From NCBI GenBank assembly GCA_965243595.1, contig OZ251569.1, forward strand, positions 1,994,381 through 2,058,380: a stretch of 64,000 bases of DNA, in the 5' to 3' direction. A program made the position numbers and the translations under genes. Each line of letters begins with the position of its first letter. The first letter of the stretch is position 1. Source of the stretch: Thermodesulfobacteriota bacterium (lineage in GTDB: Bacteria; Desulfobacterota_D; UBA1144; Nemesobacterales; Nemesobacteraceae). This document shows, in pieces, positions 7,225 through 31,286 of this stretch. The notes beneath the pieces are model-generated. The model saw only the letters and a program-made list of their open reading frames with translations, had not been told where the DNA came from and did not search any database.

Positions 7225-8142
7225 ATGAATCGCACTTTGTTCTCAATCGCTTACGACGGGCCGGCGGTTCGCGACGGAGTGATGGAAGTGCGCGACCTGG
7301 CCCCAGCGCTTCTGGCCGTCGGAAAACTCTTTGACGCGGCAAGCAGGGAACTTAACGGCGAAGACATCAAAGTCAACGTCAACGTCAGAGCCACGGAAGC
7401 CGGGTCGTTTGAAGTTCTTCTCGAACTGACCCAGAAACTGGGAGGGCAGCTGGTGGAACTTCTCAGCGGCGACCAGGTTACGGCCGCCGTACAGCTAAGA
7501 GAACTCGCGCTGGGAGGGGCCGCGAGCGCGGCGGGACTCATCTGGCTGATCAAAAAACTCAGGGGACGCAACCCGGACAAGATAGAGAAAACGGACGAAG
7601 GCAGCGTGCGCCTGACAGTCGGCGACGAAAGTTTCGAAGTTCCGACCGAGCTTCTGAGGCTCTACAAAGACATCGCCGTGCGCAAGGCTCTTGAAGAACT
7701 TGTCGAGAAGCCTCTCAAGCGCGACGGCATTGAAAAATTCGAGGTGCGCGGCAAGGACGACCCGTCAAAACCTCCCGAACCGCTGGAAACCGTCTCGAAA
7801 CCGGAATCCGATTACTTCACCATCAGGGAAGGACCCGATGAAAAAGTGCTCGTCGAATCCACAAGGAAAGCCGCCTTTCATATCATTTCGCTCGCATTCA
7901 AAGACGACAACAAGTGGCGACTGACGGACGGCGACGCCCAGATTACCGCGCTCATCACGGATCAGGACTTCCTTCGGCGCGTCAACTCGAACGAGATAGC
8001 GTTTGCCAGAGGGGATGTCCTGATATGCGAGGTGAAGACCATCCAGAAACAGGGAATCGAAGGTCTGAAAACCGAGCATATAGTGCAAAGCGTAAACGAG
8101 CACAAACCCGCGATGCGTCAGCTGGATCTTCCCATCCAGTAA
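7225..8142 (+). CDS. hypothetical protein (305 aa), no recognisable family
   Basis: A clean ORF (MNRTLFSIAYDGPAVRDGVMEVRDLAPALLAVGKLF...) with soluble-protein composition, isolated on the + strand between bioB and a deoxyribosyltransferase-like gene. Confidence 0.55.
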   Translation: MNRTLFSIAYDGPAVRDGVMEVRDLAPALLAVGKLFDAASRELNGEDIKVNVNVRATEAGSFEVLLELTQKLGGQLVELLSGDQVTAAVQLRELALGGAASAAGLIWLIKKLRGRNPDKIEKTDEGSVRLTVGDESFEVPTELLRLYKDIAVRKALEELVEKPLKRDGIEKFEVRGKDDPSKPPEPLETVSKPESDYFTIREGPDEKVLVESTRKAAFHIISLAFKDDNKWRLTDGDAQITALITDQDFLRRVNSNEIAFARGDVLICEVKTIQKQGIEGLKTEHIVQSVNEHKPAMRQLDLPIQ

Positions 8143-8192
8143 CGACCTCCCGAAAACGCCGCGACGGTAGAAAGAAGCAAGGCGGGCGGCCG

Positions 8193-8654
8193 TCAGGTCC
8201 CGAAAATCTCCCCGAGCGCCCCGGGAATCTCCGCCGCGGAGAGAACCACCCTGCCCCCGCTTTTCAATATGAAGTACTCGACCTGGAGATTCACCACGCT
8301 TCCCGGGTTGTCTCCCGTGAGGCGAAAGTCCCCCCTGTAGCCGAGAATCGTCTTTCCCAAGGCGAAGGCATAACCTATTTCTGAAGCCGTTCCGCTGTCG
8401 ACGTCCGTTCCGTCCAGAACGGCCACCACCCCGTCGCAGGAGGCTATGGCGTCGGCGTTCGCCCGTCCCTTGGCCATGTTGAACTCCTCCCAGACCCTCT
8501 TCGGGGAGCCGGCGGCGGGAACCTCGGGGGGAAGGCTCCAGGGGTCAAGCGTCCCGAGACCGCAGCGTCTCAGAAGCGGCAGCAGCTCGCCTTCGTAAAA
8601 ACCGCGGTACGATTCGGAAAACCCCAGGGGGCTCGCCACGTAGACTTTCTTCAT
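8193..8654 (-). CDS. nucleoside 2-deoxyribosyltransferase-like protein
   Basis: MKKVYVASPLGFSESYR...DGVVAVLDGTDVDSGTASEIGYAFALGKTILGYRGD has the Rossmann-like NDT/YtoQ-family pattern: N-terminal (V/I)Y(L/V)A(S/G)P and a conserved E/D in the DSGTASEIG region. Confidence 0.6.
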   Translation of the reverse strand: MKKVYVASPLGFSESYRGFYEGELLPLLRRCGLGTLDPWSLPPEVPAAGSPKRVWEEFNMAKGRANADAIASCDGVVAVLDGTDVDSGTASEIGYAFALGKTILGYRGDFRLTGDNPGSVVNLQVEYFILKSGGRVVLSAAEIPGALGEIFGT

Positions 8655-22421: not shown

Positions 22422-23003
22422 ATGGCCGAAGAACGCGAGATAGCGGAACTTGGAAACCCCGTGCTGAGACGCAGGGCCGCGGAGGTCGAAGACCCGGGCG
22501 AGCCGCGGGTACAGGAGCTCATAGACGACATGATAGCCACGGCCGCGGGGGCGCAGGGAGTCGGAATCGCGGCTCCGCAGGTCTCCGAGCCCCTTCGCGT
22601 CTTCGTGATCGCCGGCGCGGCGAGCGAGCGCTACCCCGGGCAGTCCGAGACGGAGCCTAGGGTCGTGATAAACCCCGAGATAGTGTCGGTGTCGGAAGAG
22701 ACGGAAAAAGGGTGGGAAGGATGTCTCAGCATACCGGGAATCAGGGGACTCGTCCCCAGGCGCGTCTCGCTTCGCGCGGTCTACAGGGACAGGAGCGGAA
22801 ACCCCGTGGAAGAGAGCTTTTCGGGCTTTTCGGCGAGGGTGTTCCAGCACGAGTACGATCACCTAAACGGCGTCGTGTTTCTCGACAGGGTTGAAAGCTC
22901 CGCGGAAATAATCACGGAAAACGAGTACGAAAAGCTCCTGGCCGGGCAGGCCGGAGAGCGCGGCGCCCGACGCGAGGGCCCCGCGGGAGGAGAATCCCCA
23001 TGA
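22422..23003 (+). CDS. def: peptide deformylase
   Basis: MAEEREIAELGNPVLRRRAAEV...GVGIAAPQV, EGCLSIPG and QHEYDHLNG are the three PDF motifs; it is followed by an acidic/Gly-rich tail. Confidence 0.9.
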   Translation: MAEEREIAELGNPVLRRRAAEVEDPGEPRVQELIDDMIATAAGAQGVGIAAPQVSEPLRVFVIAGAASERYPGQSETEPRVVINPEIVSVSEETEKGWEGCLSIPGIRGLVPRRVSLRAVYRDRSGNPVEESFSGFSARVFQHEYDHLNGVVFLDRVESSAEIITENEYEKLLAGQAGERGARREGPAGGESP

Positions 23004-24304
23004 GCGAATATCCCGAAGGACTCGACCTTGCGGTCGAGCACAGTTTCTACGACGCGGTCTTCCAGAGAAGATCCCGGCGCTTCGGCCTCGGAATGGAAAT
23101 AGAGAAGGGACCCCTGGCGTACAAGTCGAGGCACGCTCCGGTGCCTCTCTCGGAACTCGAAGAAGCCATGCTGGTGTGGACGGGTCTGGGGATAAAGAAC
23201 ATAAACCTCTCGGACTTTCCCCCGCACGTGGGACTCGACCTGGAGATGCAGTTCACGAGCAAGACCATTCCCGCCCTGGGCGACGTGCACAGAACGGAGC
23301 TTTTCTACACCAACGACGAAGGTCTCTACATGATAAAGATGCACGACAAGCGTCCGGAGGATTTCGAGGGTCTGGAGAAAATGACCCGCCGGGAGAGAAC
23401 CGACCGCATGCTGGAGCTGTTTCGCGAATCCAGGATCAGGCTTTCCGACGGAAGGGCGGACCTTCCCTCCAAGCCCCCCGGAATCGCCGCCCACAATCTG
23501 TGGAACGTGAACAAGCCGGGAACCACGGTTTTCATGCCCGTGACCGATCTTTCGGCGTGCATAATCAACCTCTACTTCTTCTACATGAGGCCCGACCACA
23601 GGTTCAACTTCGTCGACGAGCTCCACGGCCTGAGGCCGCCGGGAACGGCGGGATGGCTCGAAAAGGGCTTTCTCGACGCCTCGAAAAGAATGCCTCTCGT
23701 GGAGGCGGAGCTTCGGTTCGCCAACGGCTACATAGCCGAGCAGGCGTTCATGGGACAGAACATGGTGCTGGCCCTCCAGACCCTGGGACTCGGCGGGTGG
23801 CTTTTCAGCGGATTCGCCAGCATGTTCATGCTGGGCGGAACCCCGTTTAACAGGGGACTGGGATTCCGGTTCGCCACCCCGAAAATACGGGGCGACGCGG
23901 GAAACCCCAATCCCGTGGCGGTGGGAAGGGACGACCTTTTCCAGGCGTTCTGCCCTCCCTACTACGAGGACATGGGCGAGGCGGTGGAGGCGTTCAACGA
24001 CATGAAATGGACCAACTGGGAGTCGCACAAGCTGCCCTACAAGGACCCGACCGGAGTTCTGGGGGAAATAGAGAGGCCCGGCAGGGACGAAATCCAGGTG
24101 GTGAAAGACATCTGCAACTACGTCTACGACACCTACGGGAGATTCCCCGCCTTTTCCGACCCCATGTTCCTGCGCTTCATGGTCCAGGCCCATCACCTCG
24201 ACCTGGATTTCTACGACAGGTACTACCCGCCCGGGGCGTACACCGAGGCGCACAGAAACCATTTCAAGAACTGGCACCCCGAGATTCCCGATCCTTTCTC
24301 GTGA
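23000..24304 (+). CDS. hypothetical protein (434 aa); N-terminus faintly nitroreductase/SagB-like
   Basis: Its ATG overlaps the def stop (ATGA), implying co-transcription. AVFQRRSRRFGLG...PLSELEEAMLVWTGLG...HRTELFYTNDEGLYMI resembles the RRSxRxF / GlY signature of nitroreductase-fold dehydrogenases, but this is from memory only and unverified. Confidence 0.5.
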   Translation: MSEYPEGLDLAVEHSFYDAVFQRRSRRFGLGMEIEKGPLAYKSRHAPVPLSELEEAMLVWTGLGIKNINLSDFPPHVGLDLEMQFTSKTIPALGDVHRTELFYTNDEGLYMIKMHDKRPEDFEGLEKMTRRERTDRMLELFRESRIRLSDGRADLPSKPPGIAAHNLWNVNKPGTTVFMPVTDLSACIINLYFFYMRPDHRFNFVDELHGLRPPGTAGWLEKGFLDASKRMPLVEAELRFANGYIAEQAFMGQNMVLALQTLGLGGWLFSGFASMFMLGGTPFNRGLGFRFATPKIRGDAGNPNPVAVGRDDLFQAFCPPYYEDMGEAVEAFNDMKWTNWESHKLPYKDPTGVLGEIERPGRDEIQVVKDICNYVYDTYGRFPAFSDPMFLRFMVQAHHLDLDFYDRYYPPGAYTEAHRNHFKNWHPEIPDPFS

Positions 24305-24662: not shown

Positions 24663-25520
24663 TCACCGGGACGAGAGAAGAATATCTCTCATGGCCTCGA
24701 CGGGGGCGTCGCGGCCCGTCCATATCGAAAAGGCGTCCGCTCCCTGGTAAAGGAGCATGCCGAGGCCGGATTCCGCCCGAAGCCCCAGCGCCCGGGCGTC
24801 TCTCACGAGCGGAGTCTCGAGGGGCTCGTACACGAGGTCGTAGACGGCGGAGTCCTTCGAAAGCAGGTCGAGGGAAAGAGCGAGGGGATCGAAATCTCCC
24901 ATTCCGGCGCAGGAGGCGTTTATCACCATGTCGGCCTCCCGGATCATCTCCGCCGTCCGACCGGCGTCGCCCACGGCGGCCGCGGAGAAGCGGACTTCGG
25001 GGAAGCGGGAGGAGAACTCCCCGCAAAGCTCCTCCGCGCGCGCGGGGGTCCTGTTGGCGACGGACACCGCCCGCGCCCCGCCCGAGCACATCCCCGCCGC
25101 GACCGCCCGGGCCGCTCCTCCCGCCCCGACGAGGAAGACGCTTTTTCCCCTGGGGTCGAACCCGAGCTCGGAGGAAAGCACCCGCAGGAGTCCCGAGACG
25201 TCGGTGTTGTGGCCCGTGAGCCTTCCGTCCTCGTTCGCCACTGTGTTGACCGCTCCGGCCAGGGACGCTTCGGGGGAGATTTCGTCCAGGTGAGCCATGA
25301 CCGAGCGCTTGTGAGGGACGGTGACGTTCACGCCGCGGATGCCGAGCGCCCTCACGGAATTCACGGCCGCCCCCACGTCGCGGGGGTCCACGTCGAACGC
25401 CAGGTAGACGCAGTCCATCCCCAGCAGGGAGAACGCCCGGTTATGCATGGCCGGAGAGAGGCTCTGGGACACCGGATGGCCGAAGATGCCGTATATCCCC
25501 GTGGTCGCTTTTATTTCCAA
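24663..25520 (-). CDS. aroE: shikimate dehydrogenase
   Basis: GIYGIFGHPVSQSLSPAMHNRAF...NVTVPHK...LVGAGGAARAVA...NRT is the classic AroE pattern. Confidence 0.9.
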   Translation of the reverse strand: MEIKATTGIYGIFGHPVSQSLSPAMHNRAFSLLGMDCVYLAFDVDPRDVGAAVNSVRALGIRGVNVTVPHKRSVMAHLDEISPEASLAGAVNTVANEDGRLTGHNTDVSGLLRVLSSELGFDPRGKSVFLVGAGGAARAVAAGMCSGGARAVSVANRTPARAEELCGEFSSRFPEVRFSAAAVGDAGRTAEMIREADMVINASCAGMGDFDPLALSLDLLSKDSAVYDLVYEPLETPLVRDARALGLRAESGLGMLLYQGADAFSIWTGRDAPVEAMRDILLSSR

Positions 25521-26452
25521 ATCCGTTCGTCCTTCGGGCGGGAGGAGAGAATCCCGCTCACTTTGCGCACGTCCCGCCCTATCTGCTCCACGAGCCGCTC
25601 CGCGCTTTCGAAACGCCGTTCGTCCCTTATCCTCTCGACGAAGTTCACCCTCACCCGCTCGCCGTAGAGGTCGCCGTCGAAGCCGAACACATGGGTCTCC
25701 ACCACAAGCGCGCTTTCCCCGAAAGTGGGCCGGACCCCTATGTTGGTCACGCTTCCGTGAAAGCCGTCGGCAAGACGGACGTAGGTCGCGTACACTCCCG
25801 GGGCGGGAAGAAGCTCCCAGCCGGTTTCGACGTTGAGCGTCGGAAAGCCTATTTTCCTTCCCCTCCTGCGCCCTTCCACGACGACGCCCCGCAGGTAGTA
25901 GTCGTAGCCCAGAAGACGGCCCGCGCGGCCGACCTCCCCCCGCGCCACGAGATCCCTGACCAGGCTGCTGCTCACGGTCTCGCCGTCCACGCGCGCGGGC
26001 TCGGCCACCACGGTCTCGAACCCGTGAGATGCTCCCATGGAACTTAGAAGATCGGCGTCGCCCTCCCTGCCGCGCCCGAAGAAGAACCCCGGGCCGACGA
26101 CCACCGTCCTCACCCGAAGACGACCGACCAGGACGTCTTTCACGAACCGTTCCGCGCCGACCCGCGAGAGCTCCTCGGTGAAGGTCAGGCGGACGACCGC
26201 GTCCACTCCCGAGGACGCGAGCAGCTCGAGGCGCTCTTCGGCCGGATGGATCAGGGAGAAGCCGCTTTTGCCCAGAACCTTCTGGGGATGGGGGTCGAAG
26301 GTGACGACGCAGGAGCGCGCGGCGTTTTGCTCCGCACGGCGCCTGGCGGCGTCTATTATCTTTCTGTGTCCCAGGTGGAGACCGTCGAAATTTCCGATGC
26401 CGGCCGAGGTCTCGAAATCGAGAGGCCCGGCGGGGTCAGTTATGATCCTCAT
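25511..26452 (-). CDS. ribF: bifunctional riboflavin kinase / FMN adenylyltransferase
   Basis: IGNFDGLHLGHRKII (HxGH nucleotidyltransferase), VVTFDPHP, and a C-terminal riboflavin-kinase region GFPTLNV...G.YATYV; the gene overlaps the aroE start by 10 nt. Confidence 0.9.
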   Translation of the reverse strand: MRIITDPAGPLDFETSAGIGNFDGLHLGHRKIIDAARRRAEQNAARSCVVTFDPHPQKVLGKSGFSLIHPAEERLELLASSGVDAVVRLTFTEELSRVGAERFVKDVLVGRLRVRTVVVGPGFFFGRGREGDADLLSSMGASHGFETVVAEPARVDGETVSSSLVRDLVARGEVGRAGRLLGYDYYLRGVVVEGRRRGRKIGFPTLNVETGWELLPAPGVYATYVRLADGFHGSVTNIGVRPTFGESALVVETHVFGFDGDLYGERVRVNFVERIRDERRFESAERLVEQIGRDVRKVSGILSSRPKDERIWK

Positions 26453-26712
26453 CGTCCGAGAAAACCGCCGCGCGAAACGCCAGCCGGGGGCGAAACGGCG
26501 AAGAGCCGAAACGCCGCGACGGACATACGGTTATCTTACATTCAGTTGGGGGGATTTTCAAAGACTCCTCTCCTCCCCTCCCGCCGGATATTCCGGCAAA
26601 GACGGTAAGGAATTCGAGCCGCCGGGCGGCCGCCCGGGACATGAACGACGACATATCGCGTTTTGGCCGTTCGGATCGAATTCCTCCGGAATTCCCCCGC
26701 AGGAGGACATTT

Positions 26713-27627
26713 TCAACCGCCAAAGTCGGGAACGGCTTTTTTTGCTTCCTGCGTCCATTCGCGAATTTCCAACAGCGGTTTCTCAGGAAGGTCAGAAGAG
26801 TGCTCGACCAGACGGCATCGGTCAAAAAGTATACCCGCAGAAATACCGACATCCTCCCAGCACGCCCTGTTCACAGCTTCGGCGACGCAAAACGCTCTCA
26901 CCGGTTCGACAACAAGATTTCTTTCCATGTATTTGTCCATAAAATTTCGTGGCTGCAGTTCTGAGCAGGAATCAGTCCAATTCGTACCGGTTTTGCATTG
27001 GGCAAAGACGATCAGTTGACCCGGCTGACCGTCCGCAAACGGAATCCAGGCGACCACGTCAAGCTTTCCGTCCCGCGTACGGACGGAAATCCCGCTTTTA
27101 TTCTGAAATCCGGAGCCTTCGCGGAGAGCCAGGCACAATTCTCCGACCTTGTCTTCAAACGAATCTTTGGCGGATGTCCCGAAAACACGGGATTCGGCCT
27201 TCTTCCGCCCGAGATAGCTTCCGATAGCGTGTGCGGAAAGAGGTTCCAAGAGCGTCGCGCCGTCAATCTTCAGATGTCTGCGGGGGTCCGTCATGTTGAG
27301 ACGGGTGGCGAGCAGCAGGTAAAGGTAGACCGCCGACTGCGCTTTTTCGGGTTCGGGTTCGGAACATCTGAGAAAACCTCCATGCGGACCAAGAACAAAC
27401 GGGTAACCCGAACCGCATGCCCGCTCTCTGCGTTCGATCTCCGTCATCACGTCCTCAACCAAGTCGGCGTTTCTGTCTTCGCTGTCATCGCAACCCGCAT
27501 CGTCCTCGTTATCGTCAATTCGTCCAAGATAGCTGAGAATTTGTCCGACGGAAACGCTTCCGCTCTTCCAGCACTTGAGTTCGGCGAAATCCGCCAGTTC
27601 ATTAGTTTCCGCCCTAGGAGACGGCAA
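26713..27627 (-). CDS. hypothetical protein (304 aa) with possible PD-(D/E)xK nuclease-like motif; candidate restriction component
   Basis: It is the last gene of a low-GC three-gene operon (MTase-ParB-this). The segment DGKLDVVAWIPFADGQPGQLIVFAQCKTG fits a D...(E/Q)xK arrangement. Its size is compatible with small type II REases, but no family was recognised with certainty. Confidence 0.4.
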   Translation of the reverse strand: MPSPRAETNELADFAELKCWKSGSVSVGQILSYLGRIDDNEDDAGCDDSEDRNADLVEDVMTEIERRERACGSGYPFVLGPHGGFLRCSEPEPEKAQSAVYLYLLLATRLNMTDPRRHLKIDGATLLEPLSAHAIGSYLGRKKAESRVFGTSAKDSFEDKVGELCLALREGSGFQNKSGISVRTRDGKLDVVAWIPFADGQPGQLIVFAQCKTGTNWTDSCSELQPRNFMDKYMERNLVVEPVRAFCVAEAVNRACWEDVGISAGILFDRCRLVEHSSDLPEKPLLEIREWTQEAKKAVPDFGG

Positions 27628-27648
27628 ATCGGGAAGTTTGAACAGCGC

Positions 27649-28785
27649 TCAACCCTCCGTCCTTCGGTTTCTGCGGGCGGCAGGAGACTTTTTGAGCTCC
27701 ATCTCCCTGTATATGTCATCGGCTAGGTCGGCGATTGTCACAGCCACGCGCAGAAGTTCTTCGGACCCGTCGTATCCCGTCGTCATGTAACCGCGTGCGC
27801 GCTGAAGCTCGTGCTTGGCTTTGTGAAGAGATTCCTGAAGAACCGCCTCGGGAGGACGGCCCAGTTCAAGAGCGAGCGACAGTTCCTTCCCCCCTCGAAG
27901 AGCCGTCACGGCTTCCTTGCTCTTGAGTACTTCGTCGAGCTGGCGGAGGTGAGGATTCTGTTTTTTTACGACGGGGGGAATCTCTCGTTTCTTGTCCCCG
28001 TACAGCCAGACGCACAACTCCCCGAGCTTCTCTATCTTGTCCCCAGGTACGGGTTCTGGATTTTCAGGGTCTACCGATTCCAATGACAAAAATTCTGTTA
28101 CTCCTTCGTACCCCAATCCGGTGTAAAGATGAGAAAAGGAAAACCTCTTGTGGAAACGGTTTTCCCGGTCATAGACTTTTTTCCTTTCAGCCTGCTCAAG
28201 CACAACCAGACCGCGATAGAGACGTTGCACCGTTTTGTGTCCGTCGCCGATCTGGCGGGCGATGTCTTCAAGAGGTATCCCGTATTCCCTATGGACATCG
28301 GCGATGTATTTCGCTTTCGCGTAACTGGTCCATTTGGCGAGGCCGTTAACGTGCTTGAAGCCGAGATAACGCCAGGAAGCCTCCCGACCGGGGGAGATTC
28401 TCGCGGGGAGATTCTTAAGATTCGAAAGAGATTGTTCGTCAAGCTTCGAGACCTTCCAGCCTTTGTCTTTCGAAGATGCCGGACCGAGCAACAGCGCTTT
28501 CACGGCCGCGAGCCTACGGTTCCCCTCTATGACGACCTTTTTCCCGTTCTCTTCTATCACTATCAAGGGTTCGTGCGGAAAATACCCGCTCGAGGTTATG
28601 GACTGCACGAGTTCCTCGATGTCCATCGTGTCCCACAGCAACGAGATGATGTCTTCATCGCTCGAGGTTTCTGCGATTCCGTATTCCGCGAGACGCGGGT
28701 TCCTGCTGTCAAAGTGCAGGTTGTCGGTGGGCAGCAGCTTTATACCTTCGTTTTCAGGCATCCTTGTCCTCCTACGCGGCGACAC
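27649..28785 (-). CDS. ParB/Srx (ParB N-terminal nuclease-like) domain protein
   Basis: The N-terminus IKLLPTDNLHFDSRNPRL...HEPLIVIEENGKKVVIEGNRRLAAVKALLLG carries the ParB-box GxRR motif and the KxxxL..R arrangement of ParB N-domains; the C-terminal about 250 aa is unassigned. It overlaps the MTase gene by 14 nt. Confidence 0.65.
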   Translation of the reverse strand: MSPRRRTRMPENEGIKLLPTDNLHFDSRNPRLAEYGIAETSSDEDIISLLWDTMDIEELVQSITSSGYFPHEPLIVIEENGKKVVIEGNRRLAAVKALLLGPASSKDKGWKVSKLDEQSLSNLKNLPARISPGREASWRYLGFKHVNGLAKWTSYAKAKYIADVHREYGIPLEDIARQIGDGHKTVQRLYRGLVVLEQAERKKVYDRENRFHKRFSFSHLYTGLGYEGVTEFLSLESVDPENPEPVPGDKIEKLGELCVWLYGDKKREIPPVVKKQNPHLRQLDEVLKSKEAVTALRGGKELSLALELGRPPEAVLQESLHKAKHELQRARGYMTTGYDGSEELLRVAVTIADLADDIYREMELKKSPAARRNRRTEG

Positions 28786-29653
28786 TCAAGGGCTTTTCGT
28801 CTCCGGCGACGTCAAACGAAACGGCGACGTTGCCGGGCGAGATGATCAGTTCGCGGGCATCGCGCTTGGTCTGCAGCGTGTAGCGGACGGGCAACAGGTT
28901 CACTTCGCATTCGCCGTAAAGGTCCCTGATGAGTTCGTCGTCGTCGTAAGACATGATCCACGGCAACGACCTCTGGGAAAGAACGTATTTCGCCAGTTCC
29001 ACATGATCCCGCCTTCCGTAAGCATTAAGGTAAAGGCGCTTGCCGTTGTTCACGTAAGGCGGATCGAGATAGACGAAAACATTTTTTCTGCCGCGCCCTC
29101 CGGGCAGACTGTCCTTGAGAAATCTGACCGCATCCTCGTTGAACGCGCGTATCCGCCCGCGCTTTTCGCCGAGTTTGAGAACGCGGCGCGCCAGCGACCC
29201 GCGATTGAAGCGGGCATCCATTTTCCACGAACCTTCCTGCCCGTAGCCGCCGATCGGTCCGGAACCGTCCAGCACTCCGGACCTGTTGCAGCGGTTCATG
29301 TAGAACGCGGCGAATCCTACGTCGAAAATATCGTAACGGTCCGGATTGGAGCAGATTTCCTTCTGTCTTCTCCACTCGCTCACGGTGAGCGGCACTTCCT
29401 CTATGCATTTTGCGAAACGCCTGGAATCATGGAGAACCGCGCGCCAGAACGCGTAGATTCTTTCGTCGGCGTCGTTGATGCGGATGTCGGAAACAACTCC
29501 CGCGTCGAGCAGCTTCAGGGCCGCGCCCGCGCCTCCCGCGTAAGGCTCGAAGTAAACGCATCCCCGTAGACCGTTGAGGTCGATAACCTTCGTAAGAAAC
29601 CCCGAAAGCGACGCCTTGCCTCCCGGGTATCGAAGCGGGCTGGGATGTCTCAT
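28772..29653 (-). CDS. DNA adenine N6-methyltransferase, D12 (Dam-like) class
   Basis: LRYPGGKASL (motif X), FEPYAGGAGAA (motif I, SAM binding), YLDPPYV (motif IV, DPPY) and NDADE form the gamma-class Dam order of motifs. Confidence 0.85.
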   Translation of the reverse strand: MRHPSPLRYPGGKASLSGFLTKVIDLNGLRGCVYFEPYAGGAGAALKLLDAGVVSDIRINDADERIYAFWRAVLHDSRRFAKCIEEVPLTVSEWRRQKEICSNPDRYDIFDVGFAAFYMNRCNRSGVLDGSGPIGGYGQEGSWKMDARFNRGSLARRVLKLGEKRGRIRAFNEDAVRFLKDSLPGGRGRKNVFVYLDPPYVNNGKRLYLNAYGRRDHVELAKYVLSQRSLPWIMSYDDDELIRDLYGECEVNLLPVRYTLQTKRDARELIISPGNVAVSFDVAGDEKPLSVAA

Positions 29654-29828
29654 CTGCAGTCTCCAAACGAATTGCGGAAAGTTAATTTCAAACCCCTTCC
29701 TTGGAAAAAAGATACCGGATTGCAGGATTATTCAAATTCCGCGAAACGCCGCAAGCCCCTGCCCGTAACGCGAATCTCCGCCGGTTCGCGTCGTCTTTCG
29801 ATACTGATATTCCCTCGCGCTCCTTCGC

Positions 29829-31286
29829 CTAGGTCTTCCAGAAAGACGGAGTGAAGAGCACGAGCACCGTGTAGAGCTCGAGCCTCCCTGCTATCATCGC
29901 CGCGGAGAGCACGACCTTGGTCGCCGAACCCAAGGACGCGTAGCTGCTCGCCGGGCCCACCTCGTCGAATCCCGGCCCGACGTTCGTTATCGCCGCCGCG
30001 GCCGCCGAGACCGCCGATTCGAGCGAAAGATCCTCGAGCATGAGCACCGCGAGAGTGAGAAACGCGAAGACGAACACGTAGAGAATGAAAAAGCTCGTGA
30101 CGCCGGAGACCGCCTTTTCGCTCACGGCCTTTCCGTCTATCTTTATGGGGGACACGAGGCTCGGATAGACGAGCCGTCTGAGTTCCCTGTGACCCTTCTT
30201 GAAAAGCACCATGAGCCGCACGGCCTTGACCGACCCGGAAGTGGAGCCGGCGCACGCCCCGAAGAACATGAGCAGAAAAAGTATCCACTTCACAAACGGG
30301 GGCCACGCGTCGAAGTCCGTCGTGGTGAATCCCGTCGTCGTGATGATCGAGACCACCTGGAAGGAGCCGTAGCGAAGCGCCTCGGAGAAGGTTTCGTAGA
30401 CGTCGGTCTGGCGAAGCTCGAGCGCTATGAAAATCGTGGCCGCGAGCGTGAAGAACAGGTAGAAGCGGAACTCGGAGCTTCGAAGAAACATCCTCGGCCG
30501 CCCCGAAAACAGGTGGTAGTGGAGCACGAAGCTCGTTCCCCCGAGAAACATGAAAAGGGTGATCATTCCCTGCACGTAGACGCTGTCGTAGGCCCCGACG
30601 CTCGCGTCCCTGCAGGAAAACCCCCCGGTGGCTATGGTGCTGAACGAGTGAGTGAGGGCGTCGAAGAAGCTCATTCCGCCGAAGAGGAGAAGGACGCAGA
30701 GAATGGCGGTGAGGGCGATGTACATGACCCAGAGCTTTTTCGCTGTCTCGGCGATCTTCGGGGCGAACTTCTCGGTGCTGGGCCCCGGGGCCTCGAGTCC
30801 CACGAGCTGCACCCCGCCCGCGAAAAGTCGCGGAAGTATGGCGACGCCCAGCACTATCATTCCCATGCCCCCGAGCCACTGGGTGAAGTTTCTCCAGAAA
30901 AGCATCCCCTTCGGAAGACCCTCTATGGACGAAAGCGCCGTGGCCCCCGTGGTGGTGAATCCCGCCGTCGATTCGAAGACGGCGTCCACGGGATTTTCGA
31001 AAACGCCGTGGAGAAAGTAGGGAAGAGCGCCGAAGACGCTTGCGAACACCCAGCAGAGGGTGGCTATCAGGAAGCCGTCGCGCCTTCGCATCTCGGCGGG
31101 GGCTTCGGGAACGCGGAACGCAATCGCGAGGGCCGCTCCCGCAAGCGAGGTCGCCGCGGCGGAAACGAGGAAGGCGCGCAGGTCCTCCCCGCCGTAGAGA
31201 ACGGAGCAGAGCGCCGGGGCCAGCATCAGAAGCCCCAGACACACGACGAACTTCCCCGTCACGTGAAAGGAGAACCGGAGATTCAC
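29829..31286 (-). CDS. trkH: Trk-type K+ uptake membrane subunit
   Basis: The 485-aa polytopic protein has repeated pore-loop-like segments (TTTGFTT, ATGGFS, FSTIATGGFS, TTTGFTTTD) characteristic of TrkH/KtrB. Confidence 0.85.
   Translation of the reverse strand: MNLRFSFHVTGKFVVCLGLLMLAPALCSVLYGGEDLRAFLVSAAATSLAGAALAIAFRVPEAPAEMRRRDGFLIATLCWVFASVFGALPYFLHGVFENPVDAVFESTAGFTTTGATALSSIEGLPKGMLFWRNFTQWLGGMGMIVLGVAILPRLFAGGVQLVGLEAPGPSTEKFAPKIAETAKKLWVMYIALTAILCVLLLFGGMSFFDALTHSFSTIATGGFSCRDASVGAYDSVYVQGMITLFMFLGGTSFVLHYHLFSGRPRMFLRSSEFRFYLFFTLAATIFIALELRQTDVYETFSEALRYGSFQVVSIITTTGFTTTDFDAWPPFVKWILFLLMFFGACAGSTSGSVKAVRLMVLFKKGHRELRRLVYPSLVSPIKIDGKAVSEKAVSGVTSFFILYVFVFAFLTLAVLMLEDLSLESAVSAAAAAITNVGPGFDEVGPASSYASLGSATKVVLSAAMIAGRLELYTVLVLFTPSFWKT

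Follow-up and report, generated by a model that had tools for sequence, protein, structure and literature searches.

A methylase, ParB-like protein and predicted nuclease cassette related to the PD-lambda-5 defence system

What a DNA methylase, a ParB-like protein and an unannotated third protein may do together is the question raised by three genes in a 64,000-nucleotide (nt) stretch of DNA from a Thermodesulfobacteriota bacterium (assembly GCA_965243595.1, contig OZ251569.1, positions 1,994,381 to 2,058,380; the whole stretch is referred to here as the window). The genes form a cassette of three same-direction minus-strand open reading frames (ORFs) encoding the methylase, the ParB-like protein and the third protein, designated NU, with trkH on one side and ribF on the other. 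A three-gene operon between trkH and ribF had been proposed in a first-pass annotation of the window, and all three ORFs are indeed found on the minus strand where it had placed them.

The cassette is likely, with a probability of about 0.65, to be a methylation-based self/non-self defence system of the PD-lambda-5 superfamily, in which the ParB-like protein would act as the sensor or loader and NU as the DNase effector. The operon is restriction-modification (RM)-like, as had been noticed at first pass, in that it comprises a methylase, a ParB-like protein and a predicted nuclease.

The three genes and their products

The methylase gene (28772-29653, minus strand) encodes a 293-amino-acid (aa) D12-class N6-adenine DNA methyltransferase of the PD-Lambda-5_B family. 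The PADLOC profile PDLC04018 (PD-Lambda-5_B) matches it with an expectation value (E) of 1.6e-97, the alignment spanning residues 3-278 of its 293 and positions 4-275 of the 291 in the profile. The D12 class, already assigned by eye, is borne out by a match to Pfam PF02086 (2e-13) and by the motifs FEPYAGGAG (motif I) and DPPY (motif IV); motif I precedes motif IV, which is the alpha-type order, and both motifs expected of a type II RM methyltransferase are present. The enzyme is not, however, the Dam-type methylase that it had been called: it is not a Dam orthologue, scoring 42.3 bits against TIGR00571 (Dam; cutoff 114.85) and 15.6 against NF008152 (cutoff 441). Its only sequence relative in the PDB is 7m6b (2.4e-12), and its identity to the corresponding enzyme in the complete PD-lambda-5 pair of Marinobacter phage AS1 is 39%. 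The canonical systems described below probably share one recognition motif, because conservation among the canonical loci is uniform across the enzyme, its target-recognition region included.

The ParB-like gene is located at 27649-28761 on the minus strand and encodes 370 aa from ATG 28761; its longest ORF (27649-28785) has 378 aa from GTG 28785. The start is most likely ATG 28761 and not GTG 28785, because AGGAGG precedes the ATG by 6 nt and the gene calls of homologues and relatives begin there. At the methylase/ParB junction (28762-28773, minus strand), AGGAGG (28773-28768) overlaps the methylase stop codon TAG. The gap between the two genes is 10 nt with this start, and the relatives' gene calls have an identical 11-nt junction.

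The ParB-like protein was modelled by AlphaFold2 with a predicted local distance difference test score (pLDDT) of 87. Its N-domain is of the ParB/Srx type and contains NPR and EGNRR motifs; the middle domain is helical and ParB-like, resembling a helix-turn-helix, and the helical C-domain (residues ~205-370) gave no specific match. The first-pass description of a bona fide ParB N-domain agrees with the Srx-like N-terminal domain and its arginine patch, in which EGNRRLAA aligns with the Spo0J box AGERRLRA. PADLOC PD-Lambda-5_A profiles match the N-terminal ~160 residues only, the best match covering profile positions 16-174 of 473. Pfam GmrSD_N (PF03235) gives 15.4 bits, below its cutoff of 33.2, and neither the ParB-like protein nor NU has a HEPN match in Pfam. 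A degenerate HEPN in the C-domain was considered and rejected, since the sole Rx4H-like string, RFSFSH, is unconserved in the phage branch (FSILS) and no HEPN match was obtained. Over 54 canonical loci the protein is most conserved at residues 141-200 (0.83-0.89), inside the stretch that it has in common with PD-Lambda-5_A, and its conservation exceeds that of NU.

The NU gene occupies 26713-27645 on the minus strand. Its called start, TTG 27627, gives 304 aa, and probably the gene starts instead at CTG 27645, giving 310 aa, because the six residues so added, LFKLPD, match the MFKLPxLPSP-type N-terminus of the homologues. At the ParB/NU junction (27646-27658, minus strand), the ParB stop codon TGA (27651-27649) comes after GGAGGG (27658-27653), and the candidate CTG, which is in frame, lies 3 nt past the stop and 7 nt past GGAGGG. 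When NU is begun at TTG 27627 the gap is 21 nt; homologous loci usually have 0-12 nt between the end of ParB and the beginning of NU. Junctions this short, equipped with Shine-Dalgarno sequences, are consistent with co-translation, which suggests that the translation of ParB and NU is coupled. The 14-nt overlap and 21-nt gap given in the first-pass annotation are correct for the longest ParB ORF and for TTG 27627, respectively, and do not hold for the likely starts ATG 28761 and CTG 27645. All the motifs that it had listed (RYPGGK, FEPYAGGAG, DPPY, GNRRLAAVKAL and D...QCK) are present in the translations.

NU belongs to a large family that is annotated merely as 'hypothetical protein'; its members fall into more than 960 clusters when grouped at 90% identity, and grouping at 50% identity gives 2,429 representatives (E <= 0.001). 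PADLOC gave no match to it, nor did Pfam or NCBIfam, even at E up to 1. No significant match was found in the PDB by single sequence or by profile, and a Foldseek search of the PDB returned nothing at E <= 0.001. The predicted model (pLDDT 85; predicted template modelling score, pTM, 0.87) has an N-terminal winged helix and a restriction-endonuclease-like C-terminal domain. The structures closest to the latter, none of them a significant Foldseek match, are the cleavage domains of the MspJI/AspBHI type and of type IIS enzymes (FokI, N.BspD6I, PaqCI).

Five residues, D186, D190, D199, Q210 and K212, are invariant in 36 NU homologues, and D190-X19-Q210-C-K212 is proposed as the catalytic motif. 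The D...QxK signature read by eye in the 304-aa protein is thereby substantiated. D190 and the QCK lie on consecutive predicted strands (191-194 and 206-212), and in the model this placement is that of the classic PD-(D/E)xK motif. NU may therefore be regarded, with moderate confidence, as a predicted winged helix joined to a PD-(D/E)xK-like nuclease fold. Structure prediction, put forward at first pass as a check on this protein, thus points with moderate strength to a nuclease fold; the DpnII/MboI relationship suggested there is not supported, NU having no match to any Pfam or NCBIfam family. The motif of MspJI is D-X20-QxK, close to the D190-X19-Q210-x-K212 of NU, and the winged-helix plus PD-(D/E)xK layout is common to NU and SdaI. 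No SRA-like or other modified-base-reading domain was found in NU.

Distribution and proposed function

A pattern scan of one genome per species revealed NU relatives in at least 110 species, and 80 of these loci (given L numbers here) were read. They span more than 10 phyla and include Thermodesulfobacteriota, Gamma- and Alphaproteobacteria, Planctomycetota, Nitrospirota, Verrucomicrobiota, Bacteroidota, Chloroflexota, Cyanobacteria, Spirochaetes and others. The canonical order, methylase - ParB - NU, is found in 53 of the 80. Nine loci have ParB-NU with another methylase arrangement nearby, five have ParB-NU with no methylase within ~5 kb, and six have ParB-NU with too little upstream DNA for a methylase call; in the other seven the upstream DNA is insufficient for ParB, or NU is truncated.

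In each of the 73 loci where the upstream DNA suffices, the gene next to NU on its upstream side is a ParB homologue. This constancy bears on one rival explanation, in which the cassette is an ordinary type II RM system: NU alone would be the sequence-specific enzyme, with site recognition by its winged helix, as in SdaI, and the ParB-like protein would be an accessory controller of the KorB/ParB type in the role of a C-protein. Such an arrangement appears quite unlikely, because ParB and NU are inseparable in 73 of 73 assessable loci, the methylase-less ones included, and because the supposed accessory is the better conserved of the two proteins. Moreover, its N-terminal and middle domains are common to PD-Lambda-5_A, where no separate nuclease exists, and the coupled translation suggests that it is made in stoichiometric rather than regulatory amounts. 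At 370 aa and three domains it is also, to our knowledge, far larger than the known controller proteins.

A methylase is linked in ~62 of the ~67 assessable loci (~92%), usually in the same operon with ~10-nt junctions. Among the nine loci with other arrangements, a second D12 family is found in five, and in two the gene directly downstream, on the same strand, is an N6_N4 methylase, as it is in L075, one of the loci with too little upstream DNA; the canonical methylase sits downstream in L070, and L052 has a decayed copy. The N6_N4 loci form a ParB and NU subclade of their own, and so do three of the second-D12 loci, so it appears that the ParB-NU pair co-diverges with the type of methylase. 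Candidate methylases upstream in L029 and L065 were rejected as spurious antisense ORFs of a short-chain dehydrogenase gene.

The surroundings of the cassette vary. In a gammaproteobacterial metagenome-assembled genome (MAG), whose contig also carries L016, it lies inside a type I RM system, between hsdM/hsdS and hsdR, and is followed by an unannotated 555-aa gene (L007:2735-14559). In Pseudomonas yangonensis (L001:4763-8927) it directly follows a phage-type integrase gene and precedes TrbL/NikA-like conjugation genes, which indicates carriage by an integrative mobile element. Cultured carriers include P. yangonensis MY50 and Microcystis elabens FACHB-917. In L072 (7117-9324) the downstream N6_N4 methylase is broken by an insertion sequence with a DDE_3 transposase (7602-8645), and ParB-NU looks intact.

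A distant version is carried by the P2-like phage vB_EcoM-12474III, where three genes occupy the variable slot after the portal gene, a defence hotspot of P2 (L009). The ParB homologue has 31% identity over 89% of the query, the NU homologue has 23% identity (E 3e-9), and a C5 cytosine methylase lies on the opposite strand. Both homologies are confirmed by PHROG profiles (phrog_3694; phrog_3984 and phrog_14650), all listed as 'unknown function', and 36 of 5,426 complete E. coli genomes carry the intact ParB/NU/C5 methylase trio; E. coli O145:H28 RM13514 is a source of the P2-prophage version. The equivalent site of Yersinia phage L-413C has just a ParB-like gene with a divergent C-terminus, and neither NU nor a methylase; in phages Wphi and P2 the matches to the ParB protein are only partial, covering 65% of the query.

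From these data a working scheme may be drawn. The D12 methylase would mark host DNA at a short motif, and the ParB-like protein would serve as a DNA-engaging sensor or loader. Its N-domain and helical middle domain are the candidate readers of the DNA and its methylation state by parsimony, because they form the only part common to PD-Lambda-5_A. The protein may dimerise through its helical C-domain, or that domain may contact NU, and nucleotide might be bound by the GxRR patch. NU, made in step with ParB by coupled translation, would form a complex with it and, as the effector, cut unmarked DNA; a DNase acting in trans would thus substitute for the HEPN domain that PD-lambda-5 carries as a fusion in cis. 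A tentative and rather doubtful refinement is that the ParB-like protein is a clamp gated by cytidine or adenosine triphosphate (CTP or ATP), which loads at unmethylated sites, slides and licenses NU. If the ParB domain is a nucleotide switch here, the roles of ParB-CTP clamps extend from segregation and gene silencing to the restriction of foreign DNA.

Several observations weigh against the defence scheme. The GxRR patch of the ParB-like protein lacks the Glu and the third Arg of the canonical GERRxRA, so that nucleotide binding is only putative. No ParB-NU fusion protein was found to back a physical complex: a concatenated query retrieved only ParB proteins of ~370 aa among its best 120 matches, and the best 150 NU representatives are all stand-alone proteins of ~300 aa. 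The NU homologue of the P2-like phage (L009:5100-6092; L010:207-1199) has QCG where the family has the invariant QCK. In two loci from Gammaproteobacteria/Pseudomonadales MAGs (L053:7301-9125; L058:7018-8922), a NotI-family endonuclease and a D12 methylase lie tail-to-tail with a methylase-less ParB-NU; the nearby methylase there is paired with the endonuclease in a separate RM system, and part of the apparent methylase exchange may be plain neighbourhood in defence islands. Finally, in five of the ~67 loci housekeeping genes flank an intact ParB-NU pair, and a methylase is absent from the surrounding ~5 kb. A classic restriction enzyme would not be expected to persist without its methylase, unless the methylase is elsewhere or the pair is normally inactive, and these five pairs weaken a strict RM model.

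The same five loci favour another explanation, namely that ParB-NU is self-contained and blind to the mark of the linked methylase, acting as a toxic abortive-infection (Abi) effector set off by infection or as a modification-dependent (type IV-like) enzyme, with the methylase a common yet separable neighbour. It is also favoured by a Chthoniobacter MAG (L036:3920-4831), in which ParB and NU are 91% and 97% identical to those of the canonical L037 and the methylase slot holds an unrelated 303-aa ORF, whose sole match, to the HaeII endonuclease family, is sub-threshold. The probability of this explanation is nevertheless low: it leaves unaccounted for the high frequency and usually operonic position of the methylase and the tracking of methylase families by ParB-NU subclades, a type IV enzyme beside an active methylase would attack its own host, and NU is devoid of any recognisable domain for reading modified bases.

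Flanks, composition and selection

The cassette is flanked beyond the methylase gene by a TrkH-like ORF (29829-31286) and beyond the NU gene by a RibF-like ORF (25511-26452). From the stop of trkH to the start of the methylase gene runs a spacer of 175 nt (29654-29828, minus strand), which is AT-richer and forms the upstream edge of the insertion; it is presumed to be the promoter region, and a consensus sigma-70 match was not found in it. The 260 nt that separate the stop of NU from the start of ribF (26453-26712, minus strand) make up a second spacer, which forms the downstream edge and contains a single weak promoter-like site (26561-26533), which could serve ribF.

In 500-bp windows the guanine plus cytosine (GC) content of the cassette is 0.52-0.58 and that of the flanks 0.62-0.69. 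The cassette is therefore lower in GC than its flanks, as was first noted, with the measured 52-58% replacing the earlier figure of 48-55%. By gene, the GC contents of the methylase, ParB and NU are 0.58, 0.54 and 0.54, and those at third codon positions (GC3) are 0.71, 0.63 and 0.57, as against 0.83 and 0.80 in TrkH and RibF. Low GC together with low GC3 points to a horizontal origin, and the cassette fits a horizontally acquired unit.

Two related metagenomic contigs (L093 and L094) have the cassette at the identical trkH-ribF site. When the window is compared with these two relatives, the ratio of nonsynonymous to synonymous substitution rates (dN/dS) is 0.18-0.26 for all three cassette genes, which are by this measure under purifying selection. 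The ORFs are not chance occurrences, because each has hundreds to thousands of homologues in addition to such dN/dS values. The dS values are higher in the cassette (0.19-0.56) than in TrkH and RibF (0.10-0.16). NU is the fastest of the three (window 26713-27627 vs L093:7001-7915 and L094:7001-7915), with identities to the window version of 76% and 83% in the two contigs against 90-93% for its partners, and a dS of 0.44-0.56 against 0.19-0.27. Its changes cluster in the nuclease half, and the winged helix is near-identical. The fast divergence of NU could reflect allelic recombination or arms-race pressure.

These results also bear on the possibility that the cassette is what remains of a partition or packaging module from a phage or plasmid, consisting of ParB and a phage-type methylase with no defence role. 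ParB-methylase pairings do occur at phage ParB-terminase loci (PMC4738411), and the middle protein does have a ParB fold. A remnant is nevertheless highly improbable, because no ParA, terminase or other mobile-element gene is present at the window locus, the unit including its nuclease gene is kept across phyla under purifying selection, and it is stably held between housekeeping genes in three related genomes. The neighbours in the window are the methylase, NU, TrkH and RibF, and the gene tables of the related loci examined likewise contain no ParA. The partition remnant that the first-pass annotation had named as an outcome that would overturn its proposal is thus excluded here, the ParB-like gene being without ParA, chromosomal in many phyla and always linked to NU.

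Two further features of the window were recorded. A 434-aa ORF near the cassette (23000-24304, plus strand) is conserved in L093 (10425-11729), with no Pfam domain recorded there. Among 4-bp palindromes, CTAG (0.41), TATA (0.49), GATC (0.75) and CCGG (0.77) are depleted in the whole window relative to the Markov expectation. Palindrome avoidance was dropped as a clue to the target site, as several 4-mers are mildly depleted and none of the depletions is attributable to the cassette.

Relation to PD-lambda-5 and other systems

PD-lambda-5 is an experimentally validated defence system listed as 'ParB/HEPN, methyltransferase' (Vassallo 2022, PMC9519451). It was described as a compacted prophage 'RM+Abi' system, and its cloning needed an mrr-deleted host (PMC9519451); this requirement may mean that the PD-lambda-5 methylase is functional in vivo. 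The complete pair of Marinobacter phage AS1 was used as the reference. Its A protein, gp27 (486 aa), matches PDLC04017 at 1.4e-42 over profile positions 4-381 of 473, and its B protein gives 4e-103. The ParB-like protein aligns with the AS1 A protein over residues 16-205 only (E 9e-21), and NU has no similarity to it (hhalign probability 1.6%). The idea that ParB and NU are PD-Lambda-5_A cut in two was rejected on the grounds that NU is unlike A and that the C-terminal half of ParB is also unrelated to it.

The two systems share the methylase family, and the ParB N-domain with the helical region that follows it is homologous. Both are found on prophages and islands, and at some loci one methylase is common to both. 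They differ in that PD-lambda-5 has two genes in the order A-B, with a single ParB/HEPN protein of ~430-520 aa as PD-Lambda-5_A, whereas the cassette has three in the order methylase-ParB-NU, with a different C-terminal half in ParB and a separate NU. Of the features that define PD-lambda-5, the cassette has the B methylase, and lacks the full ParB/HEPN A protein and the two-gene A-B order.

Both kinds of module are found together in four genomes of Bacteroidota (those of Pedobacter glucosidilyticus DSM 23534, Sediminibacterium soli WSJ-3 and Mucilaginibacter litoreus, and a Sphingobacteriaceae MAG), where a full-length PD-Lambda-5_A gene and ParB-NU accompany a single PD-Lambda-5_B methylase. 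The order is PD-Lambda-5_A - methylase - ParB - NU in L084 (2626-6903) and L087 (2269-6909) and ParB - NU - PD-Lambda-5_A - methylase in L070 (4861-9197), and in L083 (3951-8549) PD-Lambda-5_A adjoins the cassette on the opposite strand. As judged from gene content, these composite loci are a natural double-effector arrangement, with two predicted effector modules around one methylase.

Operons of HEPN (MAE_28990 family), ParB and DNA methylase, as well as ParB-HEPN fusions (Saro_3948), had been predicted earlier (Anantharaman 2013, PMC3710099). Like the cassette, these operons combine a methylase, a ParB protein and a separate effector and were placed among RM-like systems; their effector is a HEPN protein, whereas that of the cassette is a predicted restriction-endonuclease-fold protein without a HEPN match in Pfam. 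The first-pass remark that no established type II system with a ParB-domain middle gene was known must accordingly be corrected as regards the pairing of a methylase with a ParB protein, as PD-lambda-5 (PMC9519451) and the HEPN-ParB-methylase operons (PMC3710099) precede it and the window's methylase and ParB N-domain match the PD-lambda-5 profiles. Literature searches for a methylase-ParB-nuclease system retrieved only the PD-lambda-5 census papers and the 2013 HEPN survey, and no description of a separate winged-helix/nuclease third gene or of the three-gene order was found in the literature searched. Thus, methylase plus ParB plus effector is already known as a type of system, and the version with a separate winged-helix/nuclease effector looks undescribed.

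The literature searched also contained no paper on the mechanism of PD-lambda-5, a validated system of broad range, for which the cassette is informative: the methylase and ParB-type module occur also with a separate, unannotated predicted DNase. The natural variants, with HEPN in cis, nuclease in trans, both, or no methylase, separate the common and probably sensory part from the interchangeable effectors. If the proposed roles are true, one sensor chassis is wired to a DNase in the cassette, to HEPN in PD-lambda-5, or to both in the Bacteroidota composites. The cassette is widespread and experimentally tractable, and it is unannotated; since current annotation leaves NU as a hypothetical protein, defence-finder tools would miss or mislabel it.

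The type IV enzymes GmrSD/BrxU (DUF262 NTPase with DUF1524/HNH) resemble the cassette in that a ParB/Srx-superfamily domain is tied to a defence nuclease, and two-gene versions of them exist (PMC12373910). They cut modified DNA, have no cognate methylase and carry a DGQQR motif and an HNH-type nuclease, in contrast to the EGNRR motif, PD-(D/E)xK-like nuclease and linked methylase of the cassette. No HNH or DUF1524 match was found in the cassette proteins with Pfam, and they do not qualify as GmrSD/DUF262. A methylase, a DNA-engaging subunit that uses nucleoside triphosphates and a nuclease subunit are also combined in the multi-subunit type II-like RM systems LlaJI (McrBC-like subunits) and CglI/NgoAVII (R+H/N) and in the type III enzymes. 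No sequence or fold relation to the cassette was found in these, and the likeness is one of organisation, restriction being split between DNA-engaging and nuclease subunits. In them the part of motor or switch is played by AAA+ or helicase ATPases or GTPases, not by ParB/Srx proteins; the clamp mechanism, if true, would be an RM mechanism outside types I-IV, in which long-range communication depends on a ParB-type switch and not on a helicase or AAA+ motor.

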